Below, piece by piece: positions 8,127 through 48,096 of a stretch of DNA of 64,000 bases. Each line of letters opens with the position of its first letter. Within the stretch, counting starts at the first letter, position 1. The notes below the pieces were generated by a model, which made no database searches, was not told where the DNA came from, and saw only the letters and a program-made list of their open reading frames with translations. This stretch comes from a bacterium (GTDB lineage: Bacteria > Patescibacteriota > Minisyncoccia > Phycocordibacterales > Zambryskibacteraceae). The stretch is from positions 68,623-132,622 of the forward strand of contig JAHFOF010000002.1 of assembly GCA_023266935.1 (NCBI GenBank), read 5' to 3'. The position numbers were made by a program, and so were the translations under genes.

Positions 8127-8214
8127 TGGCGGAAGCGGAGAGATTCGAACTCTCGGTGGGTTTCCCCACGCCACGTTTCCAACGTGGTGCACTAGACCAC
8201 TATGCGACGCTTCC
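8127..8214 (-). tRNA. tRNA-Ser (GGA)
   Basis: Reverse complement GGAAGCG...CCACG-TTGGAAA-CGTGG...long variable arm...TTCGAAT...CGCTTCCGCCA. Anticodon GGA; CCA encoded. Confidence 0.85.
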
Positions 8215-8236
8215 CGATATTAATTTTGAAAGCTTT

Positions 8237-8297
8237 CACTAGACCACCCATCGCCTTTGGCGAGGTCCCGCCGTAGGCGGTGATATGCGACGCTTCC
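8237..8297 (-). pseudogene. partial duplicate of the tRNA-Ser 5' end (nt 1-14 and 15-25) interrupted by a 36-nt double-hairpin element
   Basis: cactagaccac (8237-8247) and tatgcgacgcttcc (8284-8297) are identical to tRNA positions 15-25 and 1-14. A 36-nt insert lies between them. Confidence 0.7.
8248..8283 (-). repeat. 36-nt double-hairpin motif, copy C (degenerate, compensatory stem changes)
   Basis: TCACCGCC-tac-GGCGG GACC TCGCC-aaa-GGCGA TGG in tRNA orientation. Hairpin 2 is TCGCC/GGCGA versus CCGCA/TGCGG in the other copies. Confidence 0.6.
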
Positions 8298-12743: not shown

Positions 12744-13331
12744 TTATTTGCGGGTTACATAAACTAATTGGATTTTGGTACCGCCCGATTCTGGATTGAT
12801 AATGATGTTCAGTTCTTCTCGATCCTTAATTGCTTGATATCTGATTAATGATGCAGATTTGGATTGACTCACAATCGTAAATCCGTTGGTTGATAAATAT
12901 TTACTGTATGCAGAATAAAGTTCTTCTGTTTGTTTTGAAGACATGTACTGCACAGAATACAAGGTTGCTCCTCTGTCTGGATAAGCGAGAACTTCTGATT
13001 TAGAAATATTTTTCGTTTCCACAGGAATGTCTGTTGGGAATCCAGCTGGAAGTTGTTTGACTCCATCGGTGATTTGGACCTTTTCAGTAGTGAAAGATTT
13101 GTTCGGACGATTTGTGTAGTAGAAATATCCAGCCAACAACCCCAAGATGATCGCCAAAACAATAATGGAAATTAAATACGAATGAGGAGTAGGAACATCA
13201 GATGCCTTCTGAGGAGGTGGTGTTGAAATTGGAGCTTGAGGAGGTGGAGTATAAACAGGGGTGGAAGCCACCGCATTTTGCGGGGTCCCGCCAGAGGCGG
13301 TGATTGGGTTTTGGTTTAAATTTGGAGGCAT
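12744..13331 (-). CDS. hypothetical membrane protein (Pro-rich N-terminus, one TM)
   Basis: 195 aa. The N-terminal codons overlap copy B of the 36-nt motif, so the true start is uncertain. Confidence 0.4.
   Translation of the reverse strand: MPPNLNQNPITASGGTPQNAVASTPVYTPPPQAPISTPPPQKASDVPTPHSYLISIIVLAIILGLLAGYFYYTNRPNKSFTTEKVQITDGVKQLPAGFPTDIPVETKNISKSEVLAYPDRGATLYSVQYMSSKQTEELYSAYSKYLSTNGFTIVSQSKSASLIRYQAIKDREELNIIINPESGGTKIQLVYVTRK
13268..13303 (-). repeat. 36-nt double-hairpin motif, copy B
   Basis: Reverse complement tcaccgcctctggcgggaccccgcaaaatgcggtgg is near-identical to copy A. It lies at the 5' end of gene 12744..13331. Confidence 0.7.
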
Positions 13332-21763: not shown

Positions 21764-22355
21764 CTACTTCCCCTGCTTTCCTCTCTATTAAATCTGCTCT
21801 GCGTAAATTCTTTATTTGTTTGTTTGAGATAATCTTTATATGGGGAGATTTGTCCAACATTTCTACTAATTTAAACAAATCTTTTTCTGAGTTTCTCCAA
21901 TCTATTTTGATTTTGGACAAATCGAAGGGTTTAGAATAACTCCTTAAGGTTTTTTCTCCATTGGATAAAAAATATTCGTGAAAATAAGATAGGGCCAGCT
22001 CACGGATGGTTTTATAAATCGGCTCTCTGTATCTTAGAACTGCATGGTTGGTTTTGGATATGGCTCCCCAGTATCCCTGCCTACCGGCAGGCAGGCATCT
22101 TTCTCTAAACAAAGTTACTACATGGTCCACATCTTTATCTTCTGTGGTTTTTAAATCAAGTAAAAGTGGTTTGTATCCTTGTTTTTCTAGAGCCAACGCT
22201 GCGATGAGTGCTCCTTCAAAACAATGCGCCCTATTAATTTTTAAAGCTTTAGTCGGAGACATATATGTCTCACCGTCTTTTTCAAAATTAAAAGGTATTT
22301 GATTTATAAAATCCTGAATCTTCTTTGGCGTATTAAGATTAGAAAGTTTAAACAC
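21708..22355 (-). CDS. hypothetical protein, possibly a Cys-His hydrolase fold; carries palindrome copy 1
   Basis: CFEGALIAALALE...DHVVTLF; contains the in-frame LPAGRQG insertion. Confidence 0.35.
   Translation of the reverse strand: MFKLSNLNTPKKIQDFINQIPFNFEKDGETYMSPTKALKINRAHCFEGALIAALALEKQGYKPLLLDLKTTEDKDVDHVVTLFRERCLPAGRQGYWGAISKTNHAVLRYREPIYKTIRELALSYFHEYFLSNGEKTLRSYSKPFDLSKIKIDWRNSEKDLFKLVEMLDKSPHIKIISNKQIKNLRRADLIERKAGEVVNELPSKSRSFESRRKRG
22076..22095. repeat. 20-bp GC palindrome, copy 1 (one mismatch)
   Basis: cctgcctaccggcaggcagg inside CDS 21708..22355, encoding LPAGRQ. Confidence 0.8.
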
Positions 22356-37340: not shown

Positions 37341-38243
37341 TTATAGCTCTTTTTCAGCCTCTATAAATTCATCCAAATCACCATTTAGGACTTTTTCTAT
37401 TTGAGAAGTTTCAACGTTGGTTCGGTGGTCTTTGACCATTTTGTATGGATGCAGAACGTACGAACGGATTTGGTTTCCCCATTCAATCTGCGTTGTTTTA
37501 GAAATATACATCCCCTTTTCTTTCGCCTTCCTCTCTTCGTCTCGAAGTTTATAAAGTTTGGCCGAAAGCATCATGAGAGCTTTCTCTTTATTCTGCGCTT
37601 GACTGCGTTCTGTCTCTACATGCACGGCGAGGTTCGTGGGGATGTGGACCACACGCACGGCTGTCTCTCGTTTGTTCACATTTTGTCCACCCGGACCAGA
37701 TGATTTAGAAGTCTCAACTCGAATTTCTTCTGGAGGAATCTTTAGTTCATCTGGTGTTTCAAATTCGGGTATCACTTCAACCATAGAGAAAGATGTGTGT
37801 CGCAAATCCTTGGCACTAAATGGAGAGATACGCACGAGTCGATGCACGCCGGATTCATTCTTCAATGTCCCGTATGGACCTTTTGCCTCCTGCCTGCCGG
37901 CAGGCAGGTCAATCTCAATCGTGATGTTTCTGTATCCACCATGGTCATTCGTATTTTTGTGCAGAGTTTTAAAACTCCAACCTTTCTTCTCTATATATTT
38001 CATATACATTTCTAAAAGTATCCTAGAGAAATCTTCAGCGTCATCTCCACCAGCTCCAGAAAATATAGTCATCACTGCACTGCCCTTGTCATACTTTCCT
38101 CCTCCTTCCTTTTCATCTTTTAAATTTTGAATTTCTCGAATAATCGCTTGGGCCTTATCTTTGTCCAACCAAAAATCCGCCGAGCTCATCTCCGCTTCTA
38201 GTTCCTGAATTTTCTTATCTATTTCATTATTTGAAATTGTCAT
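37341..38243 (-). CDS. prfB: peptide chain release factor 2 (short N-terminal domain, no frameshift site)
   Basis: SPF tripeptide motif, GGQ motif (SGPGGQNVNK), HRLVRISPF. 300 aa. Contains palindrome copy 2, encoding DLPAGRQEA. Confidence 0.8.
   Translation of the reverse strand: MTISNNEIDKKIQELEAEMSSADFWLDKDKAQAIIREIQNLKDEKEGGGKYDKGSAVMTIFSGAGGDDAEDFSRILLEMYMKYIEKKGWSFKTLHKNTNDHGGYRNITIEIDLPAGRQEAKGPYGTLKNESGVHRLVRISPFSAKDLRHTSFSMVEVIPEFETPDELKIPPEEIRVETSKSSGPGGQNVNKRETAVRVVHIPTNLAVHVETERSQAQNKEKALMMLSAKLYKLRDEERKAKEKGMYISKTTQIEWGNQIRSYVLHPYKMVKDHRTNVETSQIEKVLNGDLDEFIEAEKEL
37889..37908. repeat. 20-bp GC palindrome, copy 2 (perfect)
   Basis: cctgcctgccggcaggcagg inside prfB. Confidence 0.85.
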
Positions 38244-39297: not shown

Positions 39298-39505
39298 ACG
39301 AATAAACGTCTCCGAATAATAATACATCAAATAAGCTTTATCAATTAAGCTTTAATTAGAGATCTAAGTGTTGCGGGTATCCGATTTGCACGGATGCCTA
39401 CAGGTTATGAGCCTGTCGAGGTACTGCTCCTCCAACCCGCTATTCTTCATATTATACGTCTTTATATTCCCAAAAGCAAGATTTAATATTATAGTGTTGT
39501 TTATT

Positions 39506-39577
39506 GCCGGTGTAGTTCAATGGTTAGAACGAAGGACTCATAAGCCTTAGACGGTGGTTCGATTCCACCCATCGGCA
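39506..39577 (+). tRNA. tRNA-Met/Ile2 (CAU), elongator-type
   Basis: GCCGGTGTAGTTCAATGGTTAGAAC...loop CTCATAA...GGTTCGATTCC; lacks the initiator GGG/CCC pairs. Confidence 0.7.
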
Positions 39578-39629
39578 CAAATTGATAAAGAACCAAAAAT
39601 CTGCTACTTTGTATCGGTAAGAAACATTT

Positions 39630-39690
39630 GCGGCTGTACCCGCCCGAACGTGCCGAAGCACCTTCGGTACGGGCGGGGCTCAACGGTAGA
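39630..39690 (+). pseudogene. partial duplicate of the tRNA-Asp 5' end (nt 1-9 and 10-22) interrupted by a 39-nt GC-rich hairpin
   Basis: GCGGCTGTA + CCCGCCCGAACGTGCCGAAGCACCTTCGGTACGGGCGGG + GCTCAACGGTAGA. The flanks are identical to the intact tRNA-Asp at 39926. Confidence 0.7.
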
Positions 39691-39695
39691 TCAAT

Positions 39696-39935
39696 ATGCA
39701 CATTGTATACGTTTTACAAGACGAAAAGGGTAAGTTTTACAAAGGACTTACAAATAACCTTGCAAGACGTTTCAGTGAACATAAAAGAGGAGAAACAATT
39801 ACAACTTCAAAAATGAGTGGGTTGAAAATTGTTTATACTGAAGAATATGACTCCTTCGAAAAAGCCCGAGCAAGAGAAGTGTACCTAAAAACTGCTGCGG
39901 GACGAAGGTTTCTGAAAAATAAATTGCGGCTGTAG
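39696..39935 (+). CDS. small GIY-YIG nuclease-domain protein (UPF0213/YhbQ-like)
   Basis: IVYVLQDEKGKFYKGLTNNLARRFSEHKRG GIY-YIG motif; 79 aa. The stop codon lies inside the first 10 nt of tRNA-Asp. Confidence 0.75.
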   Translation: MHIVYVLQDEKGKFYKGLTNNLARRFSEHKRGETITTSKMSGLKIVYTEEYDSFEKARAREVYLKTAAGRRFLKNKLRL

Positions 39936-40000
39936 CTCAACGGTAGAGCACTCCCCTGTCACGGGAGAGGCCGTGGGGTCAGCACCCATCAGCCGCGCCA
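39926..40000 (+). tRNA. tRNA-Asp (GUC)
   Basis: GCGGCTGTAGCTCAACGGTAGAGC...CTCCC-CTGTCAC-GGGAG...CAGCCGCGCCA with encoded CCA; unusual T-loop GTCAGCA. Confidence 0.75.
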
Positions 40001-40004
40001 AACC

Positions 40005-40170
40005 AAAAAGTCCAGATTTATTCTGGTCTTTTTTATACCTTTGCCGAGCTGAAGAAATGTTTAAATGACATTTCGTTGGGTGCTGAGGGCGCAGGCCGAC
40101 GGGCCGAGCCGGGGTCGCGCAAATCCCGACCACGGGATTATGTGTGATCAGACCACCCATCATCCGCGCA
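40005..40170 (+). repeat. 166-nt direct repeat R1 (cassette-junction element ending in a tRNA-Asp 3'-like core)
   Basis: About 97% identical to 40846..41012. Internal hairpins GAAATGT..ACATTTC and AATCCCG..CGGGATT. 3' end CCACCCATCATCCGCGCA. Confidence 0.85.
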
Positions 40171-40244: not shown

Positions 40245-40814
40245 ATGGAAAAAGTACCAGGACAATATGAAACCGAAGGTTTTATACCATTTGAACAATC
40301 CCTTCAAATGGCTCGAAAACTCATGGAAGATCATGAAGACGAATTGATAAATATCCGCGCTGCACTTCCCGAAGAAGATCGAGAGGCAATTAGATTTAAT
40401 GGAAGTTCCATTGAACACCACTTGAATAAGTTTCCTAAAGAAACACTAAAAAGATTTTGGGGACATGGAATTTTCAGAGGCGACGCAGAAAAAAATCTTG
40501 CGGCGCTGATTAATGTTATCCAAAATAAAAGTATAAAAGGTTCTATTGCCACCCTTGTTGATAGTGGTTATTATGATGCCGCAAAGGATGGCGATTTTTT
40601 AGTTCTTTCACACGCAGACACCACGCTCGCTGTGTTGAATGAAAACGGCAAACCTATCTTTAATGAAATCGGTTTAGTTATTAACGCTGGAGCCTATGTG
40701 GTAAATGCGAAGCTTTATCCAATAATTGATGATTTGAAGGTTCTTTTTCCTGATGCAAATATTCTCATGGCAAATGAAGTTCCTGAGTATGTGAATAGTG
40801 AAACTGGAGTTTAG
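40245..40814 (+). CDS. hypothetical protein (cassette 1 cargo)
   Basis: 189 aa, soluble, no family recognised. Confidence 0.45.
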   Translation: MEKVPGQYETEGFIPFEQSLQMARKLMEDHEDELINIRAALPEEDREAIRFNGSSIEHHLNKFPKETLKRFWGHGIFRGDAEKNLAALINVIQNKSIKGSIATLVDSGYYDAAKDGDFLVLSHADTTLAVLNENGKPIFNEIGLVINAGAYVVNAKLYPIIDDLKVLFPDANILMANEVPEYVNSETGV

Positions 40815-40845: not shown

Positions 40846-41012
40846 TAAAAAAGTCCAGATTTATTCTGGTTTTTTTATACCTTTGCCGAGCTGAAGAAAT
40901 GTCTAAACGACATTTCGTTGGGTGCTGAGGGCGCAGGCCGACGGGCCGAGCCGGGGTCGCGCAAATCCCGACCACGGGATTATGTGTGATCAGACCACCC
41001 ATCAGCCGCGCA
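40846..41012 (+). repeat. 166-nt direct repeat R2
   Basis: Second copy; 3' end CCACCCATCAGCCGCGCA is almost identical to the tRNA-Asp 3' end. It is preceded by the 21-nt junction cttcatacactagcccgcgct, which recurs at 41723..41743. Confidence 0.85.
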
Positions 41013-47511: not shown

Positions 47512-48096
47512 CTAGTTGTCTATTAATCTTTGGGAGGCCATGGATTCCAAGGTAAAACTCGTTCGGGTATTAGATTTGGTTCCAGCATCTCCACTAATCT
47601 TGATCAAAGCCTTCGGTTGTAGTGTGTCAGCTGGATAAGAATTCGCCCCGATAACATAAAATGTGAGGCTACTGATATTTATTTCTGGTGCAGTGACTGC
47701 CACATAAGTATTTCCTCCGTCCACTGATTTTTCCATAGATGAACCGTTTAATCTATATACAGTTTGCACTCCTTCACTCGACAGGAAACTAATGAAAGAA
47801 TCTCCAAGTGAACAATTTTGAGGAAGAGACAAAGAACCAGTAGAACCACAATGGTAGTTTCTACCAAAACGAATTTCTCTGGTCATCGTTTCCACAGCAA
47901 AGTTTAGATTATCCATCACAGTCTTCGCTGATTCGGCTTTTTTATTCGCATCAAAGATTCCCAGAAGCGCGCCCATACTAATCATCATCACCACCATAAA
48001 AACCGTGAGGGAAGTCATCATTTCAATAAGAGTAAATCCCTGCCTGCCGGCAGGCAGGCTTTTTTCATTCTTTGGTTTTAAAAATTTTATTTTCAT
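47512..48096 (-). CDS. type IV minor pilin/pseudopilin; carries palindrome copy 3 in the leader
   Basis: QGFTLIEMMTSLTVFMVV; LPAGRQ immediately before the cleavage Gly. Confidence 0.7.
   Translation of the reverse strand: MKIKFLKPKNEKSLPAGRQGFTLIEMMTSLTVFMVVMMISMGALLGIFDANKKAESAKTVMDNLNFAVETMTREIRFGRNYHCGSTGSLSLPQNCSLGDSFISFLSSEGVQTVYRLNGSSMEKSVDGGNTYVAVTAPEINISSLTFYVIGANSYPADTLQPKALIKISGDAGTKSNTRTSFTLESMASQRLIDN
48039..48058. repeat. 20-bp GC palindrome, copy 3 (perfect)
   Basis: cctgcctgccggcaggcagg in the prepilin leader-coding region. Confidence 0.85.

Follow-up and report, generated by a model that had tools for sequence, protein, structure and literature searches.

A 64,000-nucleotide stretch of Patescibacteria DNA from contig JAHFOF010000002.1 (hereafter the window) carries a small gene for a GIY-YIG nuclease, wedged between an intact tRNA-Asp(GTC) gene and a broken copy of the 5' end of that tRNA. 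Our analysis suggests that the arrangement is an undescribed selfish cassette, which replaces the tRNA gene that it destroys. The anatomy reported in the initial annotation holds in every position: an open reading frame (ORF) of 79 amino acids has its stop codon within nucleotides (nt) 1-10 of tRNA-Asp, and a split copy of the tRNA 5' end, identical at 22 of 22 positions, ends 236 nt before the tRNA. The stop codon, TAG at 39933-39935, is nt 8-10 of the tRNA. We refer to displaced partial tRNA copies of this kind as leftovers. The leftover in the window is interrupted by a GC-rich palindrome, which had been described as a perfect hairpin of 39 nt. The length is right, but the hairpin is not perfect, as a 4-nt bulge (AACG) separates an 8-bp outer stem, CCCGCCCG/CGGGCGGG, from a predicted 8-bp inner stem with one G-T pair (DNA fold energy -15.5 kcal/mol, z -3.8). 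Each of the two patterns, the split copy and the palindrome, has a single occurrence in the window, and 0 of 100 shuffles contained either.

The window locus is almost certainly a member of a conserved, tRNA-linked cassette family. Scanning one genome per species, we obtained 80 loci that encode homologues of the ORF at 56-78% identity, nearly all labelled Patescibacteria or Candidate Phyla Radiation (CPR) and all from metagenome assemblies. Whether homologues also abut tRNA genes had been proposed as a check, and they do: for 74 ORF hits in these loci, a tRNA on the same strand starts at most 45 nt from the stop codon. The tRNAs belong to seven amino acids, namely Ala (TGC, GGC, CGC), Thr (TGT, GGT), Asp, Val (TAC, CAC, GAC), Ile (GAT, TAT), Phe and Lys. 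TAG is present at nt 8-10 in all 74 cassette tRNAs, and TAGCTC at nt 8-13 in ~80% of them. The stop codon of the ORF lies exactly at tRNA nt 8-10 in 44 of the 74; in the remaining ORFs the stop is TAG or TAA at nt 13-15 or 21-23, or it precedes the tRNA by 2-21 nt. An exact copy, at least 8 nt long, of the 5' part of the downstream tRNA is found in the 200 nt before the ORF at 64 of 71 loci, compared with 3 and 2 of 71 in the controls. When at least 12 nt are demanded, the numbers are 42 loci and, in two control regions, 1 and 0. After removal of the hairpins, the leftover comprises tRNA nt 1 to N, with N between ~22 and 46 in most loci (median 31). Its identity to the tRNA is usually 100%, and 0-14 A/T-rich nt separate it from the ATG of the ORF. 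The abutment of stop codon and tRNA position +1, together with the lengths of the leftovers, indicates that the right junction is precise and the left junction variable. Leftovers of the tRNA 3' end lie downstream of the intact gene in ~20 of the 74 loci and also in the window, and promoter-like sites (suggestive only) are found 8-27 nt upstream of the 5' leftover in many loci. The same architecture recurs in ~70 independent assemblies from many studies.

That these cassettes invaded resident tRNA genes is probable, judging from nested alleles preserved at several loci. In L018, L023, L026, L062 and L077, the acceptor strand of the 5' leftover is complementary to that of the 3' leftover, and both differ from the ORF-linked tRNA. 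The 5' leftover of L018 starts with GCCAGCG and its 3' leftover, split by three hairpins, ends with CGCTGGC, whereas the ORF-linked tRNA-Thr between them is another allele, GCCGGAG...CTCCGGC. L023 retains two generations, in the order A5' (GCCAGCG), B5' (GCCGGAG), ORF, current tRNA (GCCACCC) and A3' (CGCTGGC), where B5' is the current allele of L018. When the leftovers of L018, L023 and L026 were re-joined by hand, ARAGORN called tRNAs, with the anticodon shifted in the decayed L018 reconstruction. In L013, L046, L053 and L065, the tRNA of the cassette (T1) is followed directly by a second tRNA copy that is truncated at its 5' end and split by hairpins; in L046, L053 and L065 this copy is a diverged allele. 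Since an interrupted allele is older than what interrupts it, the interrupting unit would be the ORF together with a complete tRNA. The moving unit thus appears to include the whole tRNA gene and not the nuclease gene alone. The anatomy of L018, L023, L026, L062 and L077 also points to transfer of flanking sequence, as in a Seg-like homing gene. The suggestion in the initial annotation of a homing or mobile GIY-YIG insertion into a tRNA gene is therefore borne out as far as geometry goes, the nested older alleles being those of resident tRNA genes. In the window, the leftovers (GCGGCTG upstream, CAGCCGC downstream) are of the same allele as the intact tRNA-Asp, and CAGCCGC of the second 3' leftover is complementary to GCGGCTG of the 5' leftover. 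A single shared allele is the pattern expected from invasion by a conspecific donor.

Several observations around the cassettes are recorded here for their own sake. Partial self-copies of the 5' end lie upstream of ~10 of 73 tRNAs without an adjacent GIY-YIG ORF, some of them without a GC hairpin; examples are tRNA-Met at 2179 in L002, at 1914 in L028 and at 2297 in L051, tRNA-Pro at 2250 in L038 and in L059, and tRNA-Val at 2198 in L041. Partial tRNA duplication seems to be a general feature of these genomes. Second, more divergent GIY-YIG ORFs lie between a few hundred bases and ~1.8 kb from the main cassette, most of them not abutting a tRNA (L003 1914-2171, L015 701-970, L028 2938-3192, L074 3178-3414, L006 1883-2143), and are perhaps older generations that were displaced. 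More remote GIY-YIG relatives, at 39-43% identity, are tied to tRNA-Arg in other geometries (L131 1552-2137, L141 4004-4392): one has hairpins in T-loop-like leftovers (GGGGTTC-hairpin-GACTCCC) on both sides of the ORF, and the other has the ORF 3' of the tRNA.

The ORF product matches the Pfam GIY-YIG family (PF01541) over residues 1-69 with 47.2 bits (cut-off 22.6; E 2.8e-12). Y5, Y15, K16, G17, R25, H29 and E61 are invariant across 39 aligned relatives, and we take residues of the Y5/Y15/G17/R25/H29/E61 type to have the catalytic roles of their counterparts in I-TevI and UvrC. A profile built from the alignment of these 39 relatives had just two matches among structures in the PDB, both of them UPF0213 proteins: 1YWL (E 3.2e-8) and 1ZG2 (E 3e-6). 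The AlphaFold2 model (pLDDT 92.6) has strands at residues 2-8, 14-19 and 44-51 and helices at 22-31, 54-65 and 67-78, and so contains the three-stranded sheet flanked by helices, in beta-beta-alpha-beta-alpha order, that defines the GIY-YIG core. Foldseek matched this model to 1ZG2, to the nuclease domain of Slx1 (6SEH) and to 1YWL. The profile and the model together predict a single-domain, catalytic-core-only GIY-YIG nuclease of the UPF0213/YhbQ/Slx1 type. Slx1, YhbQ and YazA have been treated as one URI-domain nuclease family, in which Slx1 is structure-selective (PMC7017083). The cassette protein is not Slx1 proper, as it ends at residue 79 within the tRNA and leaves no room for the C-terminal zinc-finger domain. 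Nor does the 79-residue core carry a separate DNA-binding domain of the kind that gives Seg proteins a long recognition site, and the proteins of the family are 77-83 amino acids long across cassettes.

No NCBIfam model matches the ORF, and an exact look-up of its sequence returned no record. Those homologues that carry names all come from metagenome-assembled genomes of Patescibacteria/CPR. The family is very large, with 12,215 clusters (50% identity) at E <= 1e-3 and 1,498 at 1e-10. Structures of stand-alone UPF0213/YhbQ-like GIY-YIG proteins have been solved since 2005, and we know of no function for them. The ratio of nonsynonymous to synonymous substitution rates (dN/dS) of the ORF is 0.05-0.12 at dS 0.4-0.9, a sign of purifying selection; the protein is thus kept functional, and single insertions are old.

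The palindrome belongs to a family of its own, of which the 80 loci contain 85 hairpins. Of 81 copies, 71 have the outer stem CCCGCCCG/CGGGCGGG, and 78 of 82 have the bulge AACG; the inner stems vary yet stay complementary (ACTGA/TCAGT, TACCG/CGGTA, ACCGA/TCGGT). With a slightly broader pattern, 71 of 87 matches in 373 kb fall within 200 nt before the start of an ORF, and most of the others are in 3' leftovers. Both orientations occur, in 57 and 25 copies. The initial annotation had proposed a recurrent process that targets the D arm of tRNAs, and for the palindromes this is supported: 66 of the 85 sit exactly at D-stem boundaries, 51 before GAGC (nt 21/22), 10 before GCTC (nt 9/10) and 5 after GCTC (nt 13/14). 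In older leftovers hairpins are also found in anticodon loops and T loops, and two or three are present in the oldest leftovers seen (L018, L023). The tRNA sequence is continuous across the insert, between nt 9 and 10 in the window and at 21/22 or 13/14 elsewhere. With target-site duplication absent, we rejected a strict identity as a miniature inverted-repeat transposable element. In the syntenic genomes of L021 and L031, the same 37-nt element occupies the same D-arm site (2448-2484 in both) in opposite orientation. The difference points to an inversion in place, which plausibly happened between the 8-bp outer repeats. Elements can also be nested, a CCGCCAGAATGAC...GTCGGGCTGG element being found within the loop of a CCCGCCCG hairpin (L011 2396-2454, L062 2420-2482, L018 2812-2854).

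The hairpin is not a part of the cassette alone. An unbiased search of metagenome contigs returned at least 120 matching stretches, of which 88 copies in 80 loci (L086-L165) were examined. Among the matches listed, a GIY-YIG homologue is nearby for 7 of the 88 copies and a tRNA for 10 of 88, so that ~90% are near neither. Among these matches, too, 9 or 10 of 48 testable copies lie in frame within long ORFs, with lengths of 27, 30, 33, 36 or 39 nt. We therefore rejected the idea that the hairpin is an integral, cassette-only component; it is an independent, dispersed palindromic element with a preference for stem-loop junctions. In the ORF-carrying genomes, on the other hand, hairpins are almost confined to cassettes, and a mechanistic link to the nuclease is therefore possible. 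The role of terminator or insulator that had been considered for the hairpin was discarded: GCTCAACGGTAGA follows it and no T tract, members of this dispersed family occur in both orientations, and the terminator scan is silent at this site although it called the structure at 40012-40035.

How could so small a unit replace a tRNA gene? With moderate confidence, we read the window locus as one of a widespread patescibacterial family of ~0.3-kb homing-type 'cut and replace' cassettes, each made of a nuclease gene and a replacement tRNA lodged inside an older tRNA copy. The nuclease would break a cassette-free tRNA gene in or near the region from the D arm to the anticodon arm, the cleavage and its site being our inference. 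Repair from the cassette-bearing allele, with the two leftovers serving as homology arms, would then copy in the nuclease gene and a working tRNA. As the replacement tRNA would arrive with the nuclease, the cell would never be without that tRNA, and the new tRNA would presumably be immune to cleavage. The old 5' end would stay upstream (39630-39690), probably with the old promoter, and the old 3' end could stay downstream (40154-40169, 40996-41011). The ORF and the tRNA would be co-transcribed. RNase P cleaves at tRNA position +1. Such cleavage would remove the stop codon from the ORF message, and we propose that the level of nuclease is kept low in this way. The palindrome, by splitting the D arm of the leftover, may shield it from re-cleavage, and it may also prevent loss of the cassette, as deletion of the ORF by recombination between the repeats would yield a dead tRNA. 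On whether the encoded nuclease itself makes the initiating break, we regard the case as evenly balanced.

A number of observations weigh against this 'cut and replace' scheme. The catalytic core, lacking a DNA-binding domain of the I-TevI or Seg kind, has no evident means of sequence recognition. The nearest relatives with a solved structure are UPF0213 proteins, which are uncharacterised, and Slx1, which is selective for structure and not for sequence. The new tRNA, although supposed to escape cutting, shares nt 1-22 with the leftover, base for base, in the window and in most loci. The 5' leftovers beside ~10 of 73 other tRNAs show that partial duplication can arise or persist without the nuclease gene. 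The closest ORF pairs share both tRNA and syntenic flanks, so that transmission would be mostly vertical and jumps rare, and strong purifying selection over dS 0.4-0.9 would fit a host-useful gene as well. Finally, a conspecific empty site was not found, the organism of the window being without a close relative in the databases.

The evidence on age and spread is consistent with insertions that are old and seldom move. In the closest ORF pairs, all at the same tRNA and in syntenic flanks, the cassette has 77-86% nucleotide identity and the flanks 68-81%. The ORF tree of this 76-residue protein alignment is star-like and poorly resolved and gives a trend only: tRNA identity is scattered over it, and pairs at tRNAs of the same amino acid have a mean identity of 66.8%, those at different ones 65.1%. 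Some genomes also hold copies at more than one tRNA (L005 and L036, L026 and L080, L041 and L066). The scatter and these genomes together indicate that shifts between tRNA species happened, albeit rarely. Presence and absence was seen between species only: the window has a tRNA-Thr(GGT) without the ORF that L019, L027 and L067 have there, and L049 carries a tRNA-Ala(TGC) without it. A search for an empty site by way of the neighbouring DUF3419 gene found nearest homologues that are 52-61% identical, with no tRNA cluster beside the gene. The initial annotation had set a syntenic, non-tRNA-linked position in relatives against mobility. This applies in part, as close relatives are indeed syntenic; the ORF is also under purifying selection, which speaks for old and stable insertions rather than recent jumps, but mobility as such is not thereby refuted.

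The leftovers are far better preserved than neutral sequence. Leftover and hairpin of L066 and L073 are identical at 64 of 65 positions; their ORFs differ at 50% of synonymous sites, and no alignment is possible for the sequence immediately upstream. Six tRNA-Asp loci have the hairpin at nt 9/10, and in these the leftover tracks the acceptor stem of each genome's own tRNA, through five alleles. Such preservation would be explained by repeated re-invasion, as seen directly in L023, by gene conversion with the intact tRNA as donor, or by selection acting on the leftover itself.

Other readings of the locus have to be weighed against the same evidence. The ORF could be a domesticated host gene, vertically inherited and co-transcribed with tRNAs, for example for DNA repair or processing, with the partial copies produced by tandem duplication or palindrome-provoked replication slippage and then decaying. 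Its close pairs in syntenic flanks, its low dN/dS and the great size of its family all suit such a gene, as do the leftovers that exist without an ORF and the lack of any copy in viral contigs, a search of IMG/VR having found neither an ORF homologue nor the hairpin. What a domesticated gene leaves unexplained is why the ORF always lies between a leftover and an intact tRNA and abuts tRNA position +1, why tRNAs for seven amino acids are found all over the ORF tree, why an older allele encloses an ORF-linked tRNA that differs from it, and how L023 came to hold two generations. We consider this reading unlikely. Somewhat less probable still is a hairpin transposon, in which the GIY-YIG protein would be a structure-specific nickase mobilising the CCCGCCCG palindromes. 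Hairpin plus ORF would then be the autonomous form and the dispersed hairpins non-autonomous ones, tRNA stem-loop junctions would be preferred targets, and the tRNA duplications would be by-products of insertion or repair. The protein is nearest, in fold and profile, to structure-selective Slx1/UPF0213; 71 of 87 hairpins lie at most 200 nt upstream of the ORF in the ORF loci, with almost none elsewhere in 373 kb; and insertion exactly at D-stem boundaries, or at T-loop and anticodon-loop junctions in older leftovers, without target duplication, is what it would predict. The near-invariant outer stem and AACG bulge would likewise suit a protein recognition site. Set against it are the few dispersed copies near a GIY-YIG homologue or a tRNA (7 and 10 of 88 among the matches listed) and the single hairpin in the 64 kb of the window. 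By itself it does not account for the complete tRNA carried with the ORF, and we know of no GIY-YIG transposase.

The footprint of a conventional integrative element is very improbable. A circle bearing tRNA nt 1 to N and recombining there would, by our own reasoning, give the order leftover, insert, intact tRNA, and the att duplication would be the work of a tyrosine or serine recombinase, the gene for which would have disappeared later. Such elements are known to duplicate the 3' part of a tRNA, not the 5' part that is duplicated here. Moreover, the GIY-YIG ORF is all that the 257 bp between the repeats encode, with no recombinase gene, the same 0.3-kb content recurs at 74 loci, and N varies at the left junction, unlike a fixed crossover site. 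As for chance similarity or an assembly artefact, the shuffles and the ~70 assemblies that look alike reduce it to a negligible probability. A group I intron in the tRNA gene was rejected, since the Rfam scan found tRNAs only and tRNA-Asp is uninterrupted; a preprint on group I introns that interrupt patescibacterial tRNA genes (10.1101/2025.07.03.662931) concerns a different feature.

The 'cut and replace' cassette has its closest known counterpart in SegB of phage T4, a free-standing GIY-YIG endonuclease encoded in a tRNA gene cluster, which cuts tRNA genes and drives its own inheritance together with neighbouring tRNA genes (PMC2330249). In both, a GIY-YIG gene lies between tRNA genes and not in an intron. 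SegB cuts at a conserved tRNA motif and replaces the tRNA region of the recipient with the adjacent tRNAs (PMC2330249), and the cassette would likewise spread together with its tRNA. SegB is much larger than a 79-residue core, has a 27-bp site centred on the T loop, is phage-borne, and has neither palindrome-split leftovers nor an ORF overlapping a tRNA. The cassette, by comparison, encodes a bare catalytic core, is chromosomal in Patescibacteria, and has a precise junction with tRNA position +1 and nested leftovers. Apart from its profile and fold matches, the protein resembles UPF0213, YhbQ, YazA and Slx1 in size and in its single-domain build (~80-110 amino acids). It differs from Slx1 in lacking the C-terminal zinc finger, and no Slx4-like partner is known, no search having been made for one. 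We found no report in the literature of a linkage between the UPF0213 family and tRNAs.

Small mobile palindromes include the Rickettsia palindromic elements, the repetitive extragenic palindromic (REP) elements and the GC clusters of yeast mitochondria. Like all of these, the hairpin is short, GC-rich and multicopy, has conserved ends and occurs in both orientations. It is also sometimes in frame in coding sequence, with lengths in multiples of 3 as in the Rickettsia elements, and its copies nest. It differs from them in its own sequence family and in its preference for the stem-loop junctions of tRNA-derived DNA beside the cassette. Islands and prophages that integrate in tRNA genes also leave a partial tRNA copy at the flank of the insert and restore an intact tRNA. 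They duplicate the 3' part, however, are kilobases long and encode an integrase, whereas here the 5' part, often together with the 3' part, is duplicated around a 0.3-kb insert without a recombinase. In synthetic cleave-and-rescue drives, and in mitochondrial mobile ORFs that bring a replacement gene end, a nuclease is linked to a working copy of the essential gene that it disrupts. The cassette would follow the same logic, differing in being natural, bacterial and tRNA-based, and in that the resistance of its rescue copy is inferred. Our literature search turned up no account of either the cassette or the palindrome sequence.

Coordinates of the window locus and of related features are collected in Table 1. 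The transcription unit running through the leftover, the ORF and tRNA-Asp probably starts at the promoter-like site and tRNA-Met. The spacer that follows, 39579-39629, is conserved between the window and L005. Downstream, two direct repeats of ~165 nt (40005-40170 and 40848-41012, 97-98% identical) flank an orphan ORF of 189 amino acids (40245-40814), and each contains the terminator, the 75-nt GC-rich insert and a copy of the tRNA-Asp 3' end. The insert has no relatives in ~200 fetched loci except for a single 19-nt match in L146. The orphan ORF has one homologue (50% identity), which sits ~300 nt 3' of a tRNA-Thr in L206, and no Pfam or NCBIfam match. The T loop of the window tRNA-Asp (T arm 39974-39986) is non-canonical, GTCAGCA, in which positions 54 and 58 are G. 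The T loop is TTCGAGC or TTCAAGT in ten further tRNA-Asp genes of cassettes, and odd T loops are also found in a few other cassette tRNAs (L012, L025, L026, L046, L056, L057). A scan of the window at the Rfam gathering threshold returned eight tRNAs only, with no intron and no other RNA family at the locus. The neighbouring genes are bacterial housekeeping genes (release factor, GatA, LigA).

Table 1. Features of the tRNA-Asp locus, of the tRNA-Ser(GGA) locus and of dispersed palindromes (window coordinates unless a locus is named)
Feature	Position	Strand	Remarks
tRNA-Ser(GGA) at 8127-8214, 22-nt spacer without ORF, split 5' leftover	8127-8297	-	
Promoter-like site, then tRNA-Met(CAT)	39467-39495, then 39506-39578	+	promoter is a consensus match only (9/12)
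5' leftover, piece 1: displaced tRNA-Asp nt 1-9 (acceptor 5' strand, U8 and A9)	39630-39638	+	9/9 identical to 39926-39934
GC-rich palindrome, 39 nt, between tRNA nt 9 and 10	39639-39677	+	orientation A; inner stem covarying
5' leftover, piece 2: nt 10-22 (D stem 5' strand, D loop, first base of 3' strand)	39678-39690	+	13/13 identical to 39935-39947
GIY-YIG ORF, 79 amino acids	39696-39935	+	last 10 nt are tRNA-Asp nt 1-10
tRNA-Asp(GTC), intact	39926-40000	+	ARAGORN; Rfam 59.3 bits; CCA encoded; putative replacement tRNA of the cassette (T1)
Intrinsic-terminator-like hairpin and T run	40012-40035	+	terminator scan; closes the tRNA-Met/ORF/tRNA-Asp unit
75-nt GC-rich structured insert, then 3' leftover #1	40078-40169	+	tRNA-Asp nt 58-73 at 40154-40169, 15/16
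Second copy (97-98%) of block 40005-40170	40848-41012	+	ends in 3' leftover #2, nt 58-73 at 40996-41011, 16/16
Dispersed palindromes, examples	L100 7841-7876; L132 4321-4350; L162 2628-2660		

The initial annotation had pointed to the same kind of lesion at tRNA-Ser(GGA), at 8.2 kb of the window, and we confirmed it, with a hairpin of another family and no ORF. The leftover consists of nt 1-14 (8297-8284) and nt 15-25 (8247-8237), with a double hairpin of 36 nt (8248-8283) between them. A gene boundary at 13268-13305 carries a related double hairpin with compensatory changes in one stem, and a pair of similar hairpins is found in the leftover of L015. Another widespread family of palindromes, CCTGCCTGCCGGCAGGCAGG, is represented three times in the window (22073-22103, 37886-37916, 48036-48066) and recurs in other Patescibacteria loci (L017, L026, L051, L057, L015, L182), several times within tRNA leftovers.

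We would like to raise one further idea, tentative and to our mind rather doubtful, that the mini GIY-YIG proteins of the UPF0213 type are structure-specific nickases at stem-loop junctions, which both move the CCCGCCCG palindromes and drive the replacement of tRNA genes. If this is true, nuclease, tRNA and hairpin would form a new class of ultra-small (~0.3 kb) autonomous mobile element and a natural 'cleave-and-rescue' drive on essential tRNA genes, and a very large uncharacterised family would have a function.

The cassettes also have a practical side. Leftovers and palindromes can mislead tRNA and gene callers: ARAGORN called hairpin-containing pseudo-tRNAs in L026, L046, L053 and L065, and many members of the protein family are annotated with N-terminal extensions. 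The family would offer a test system for how a nuclease consisting of the catalytic core only finds its target. The invasive unit would be unusually small: its nuclease gene measures 240 bp and takes the stop codon, and probably the promoter too, from the tRNA gene that it replaces. Our findings suggest a route for the turnover of tRNA genes and for the horizontal exchange of their alleles in the reduced genomes of Patescibacteria, and they would give a biological role to the uncharacterised stand-alone UPF0213/YhbQ-like family.

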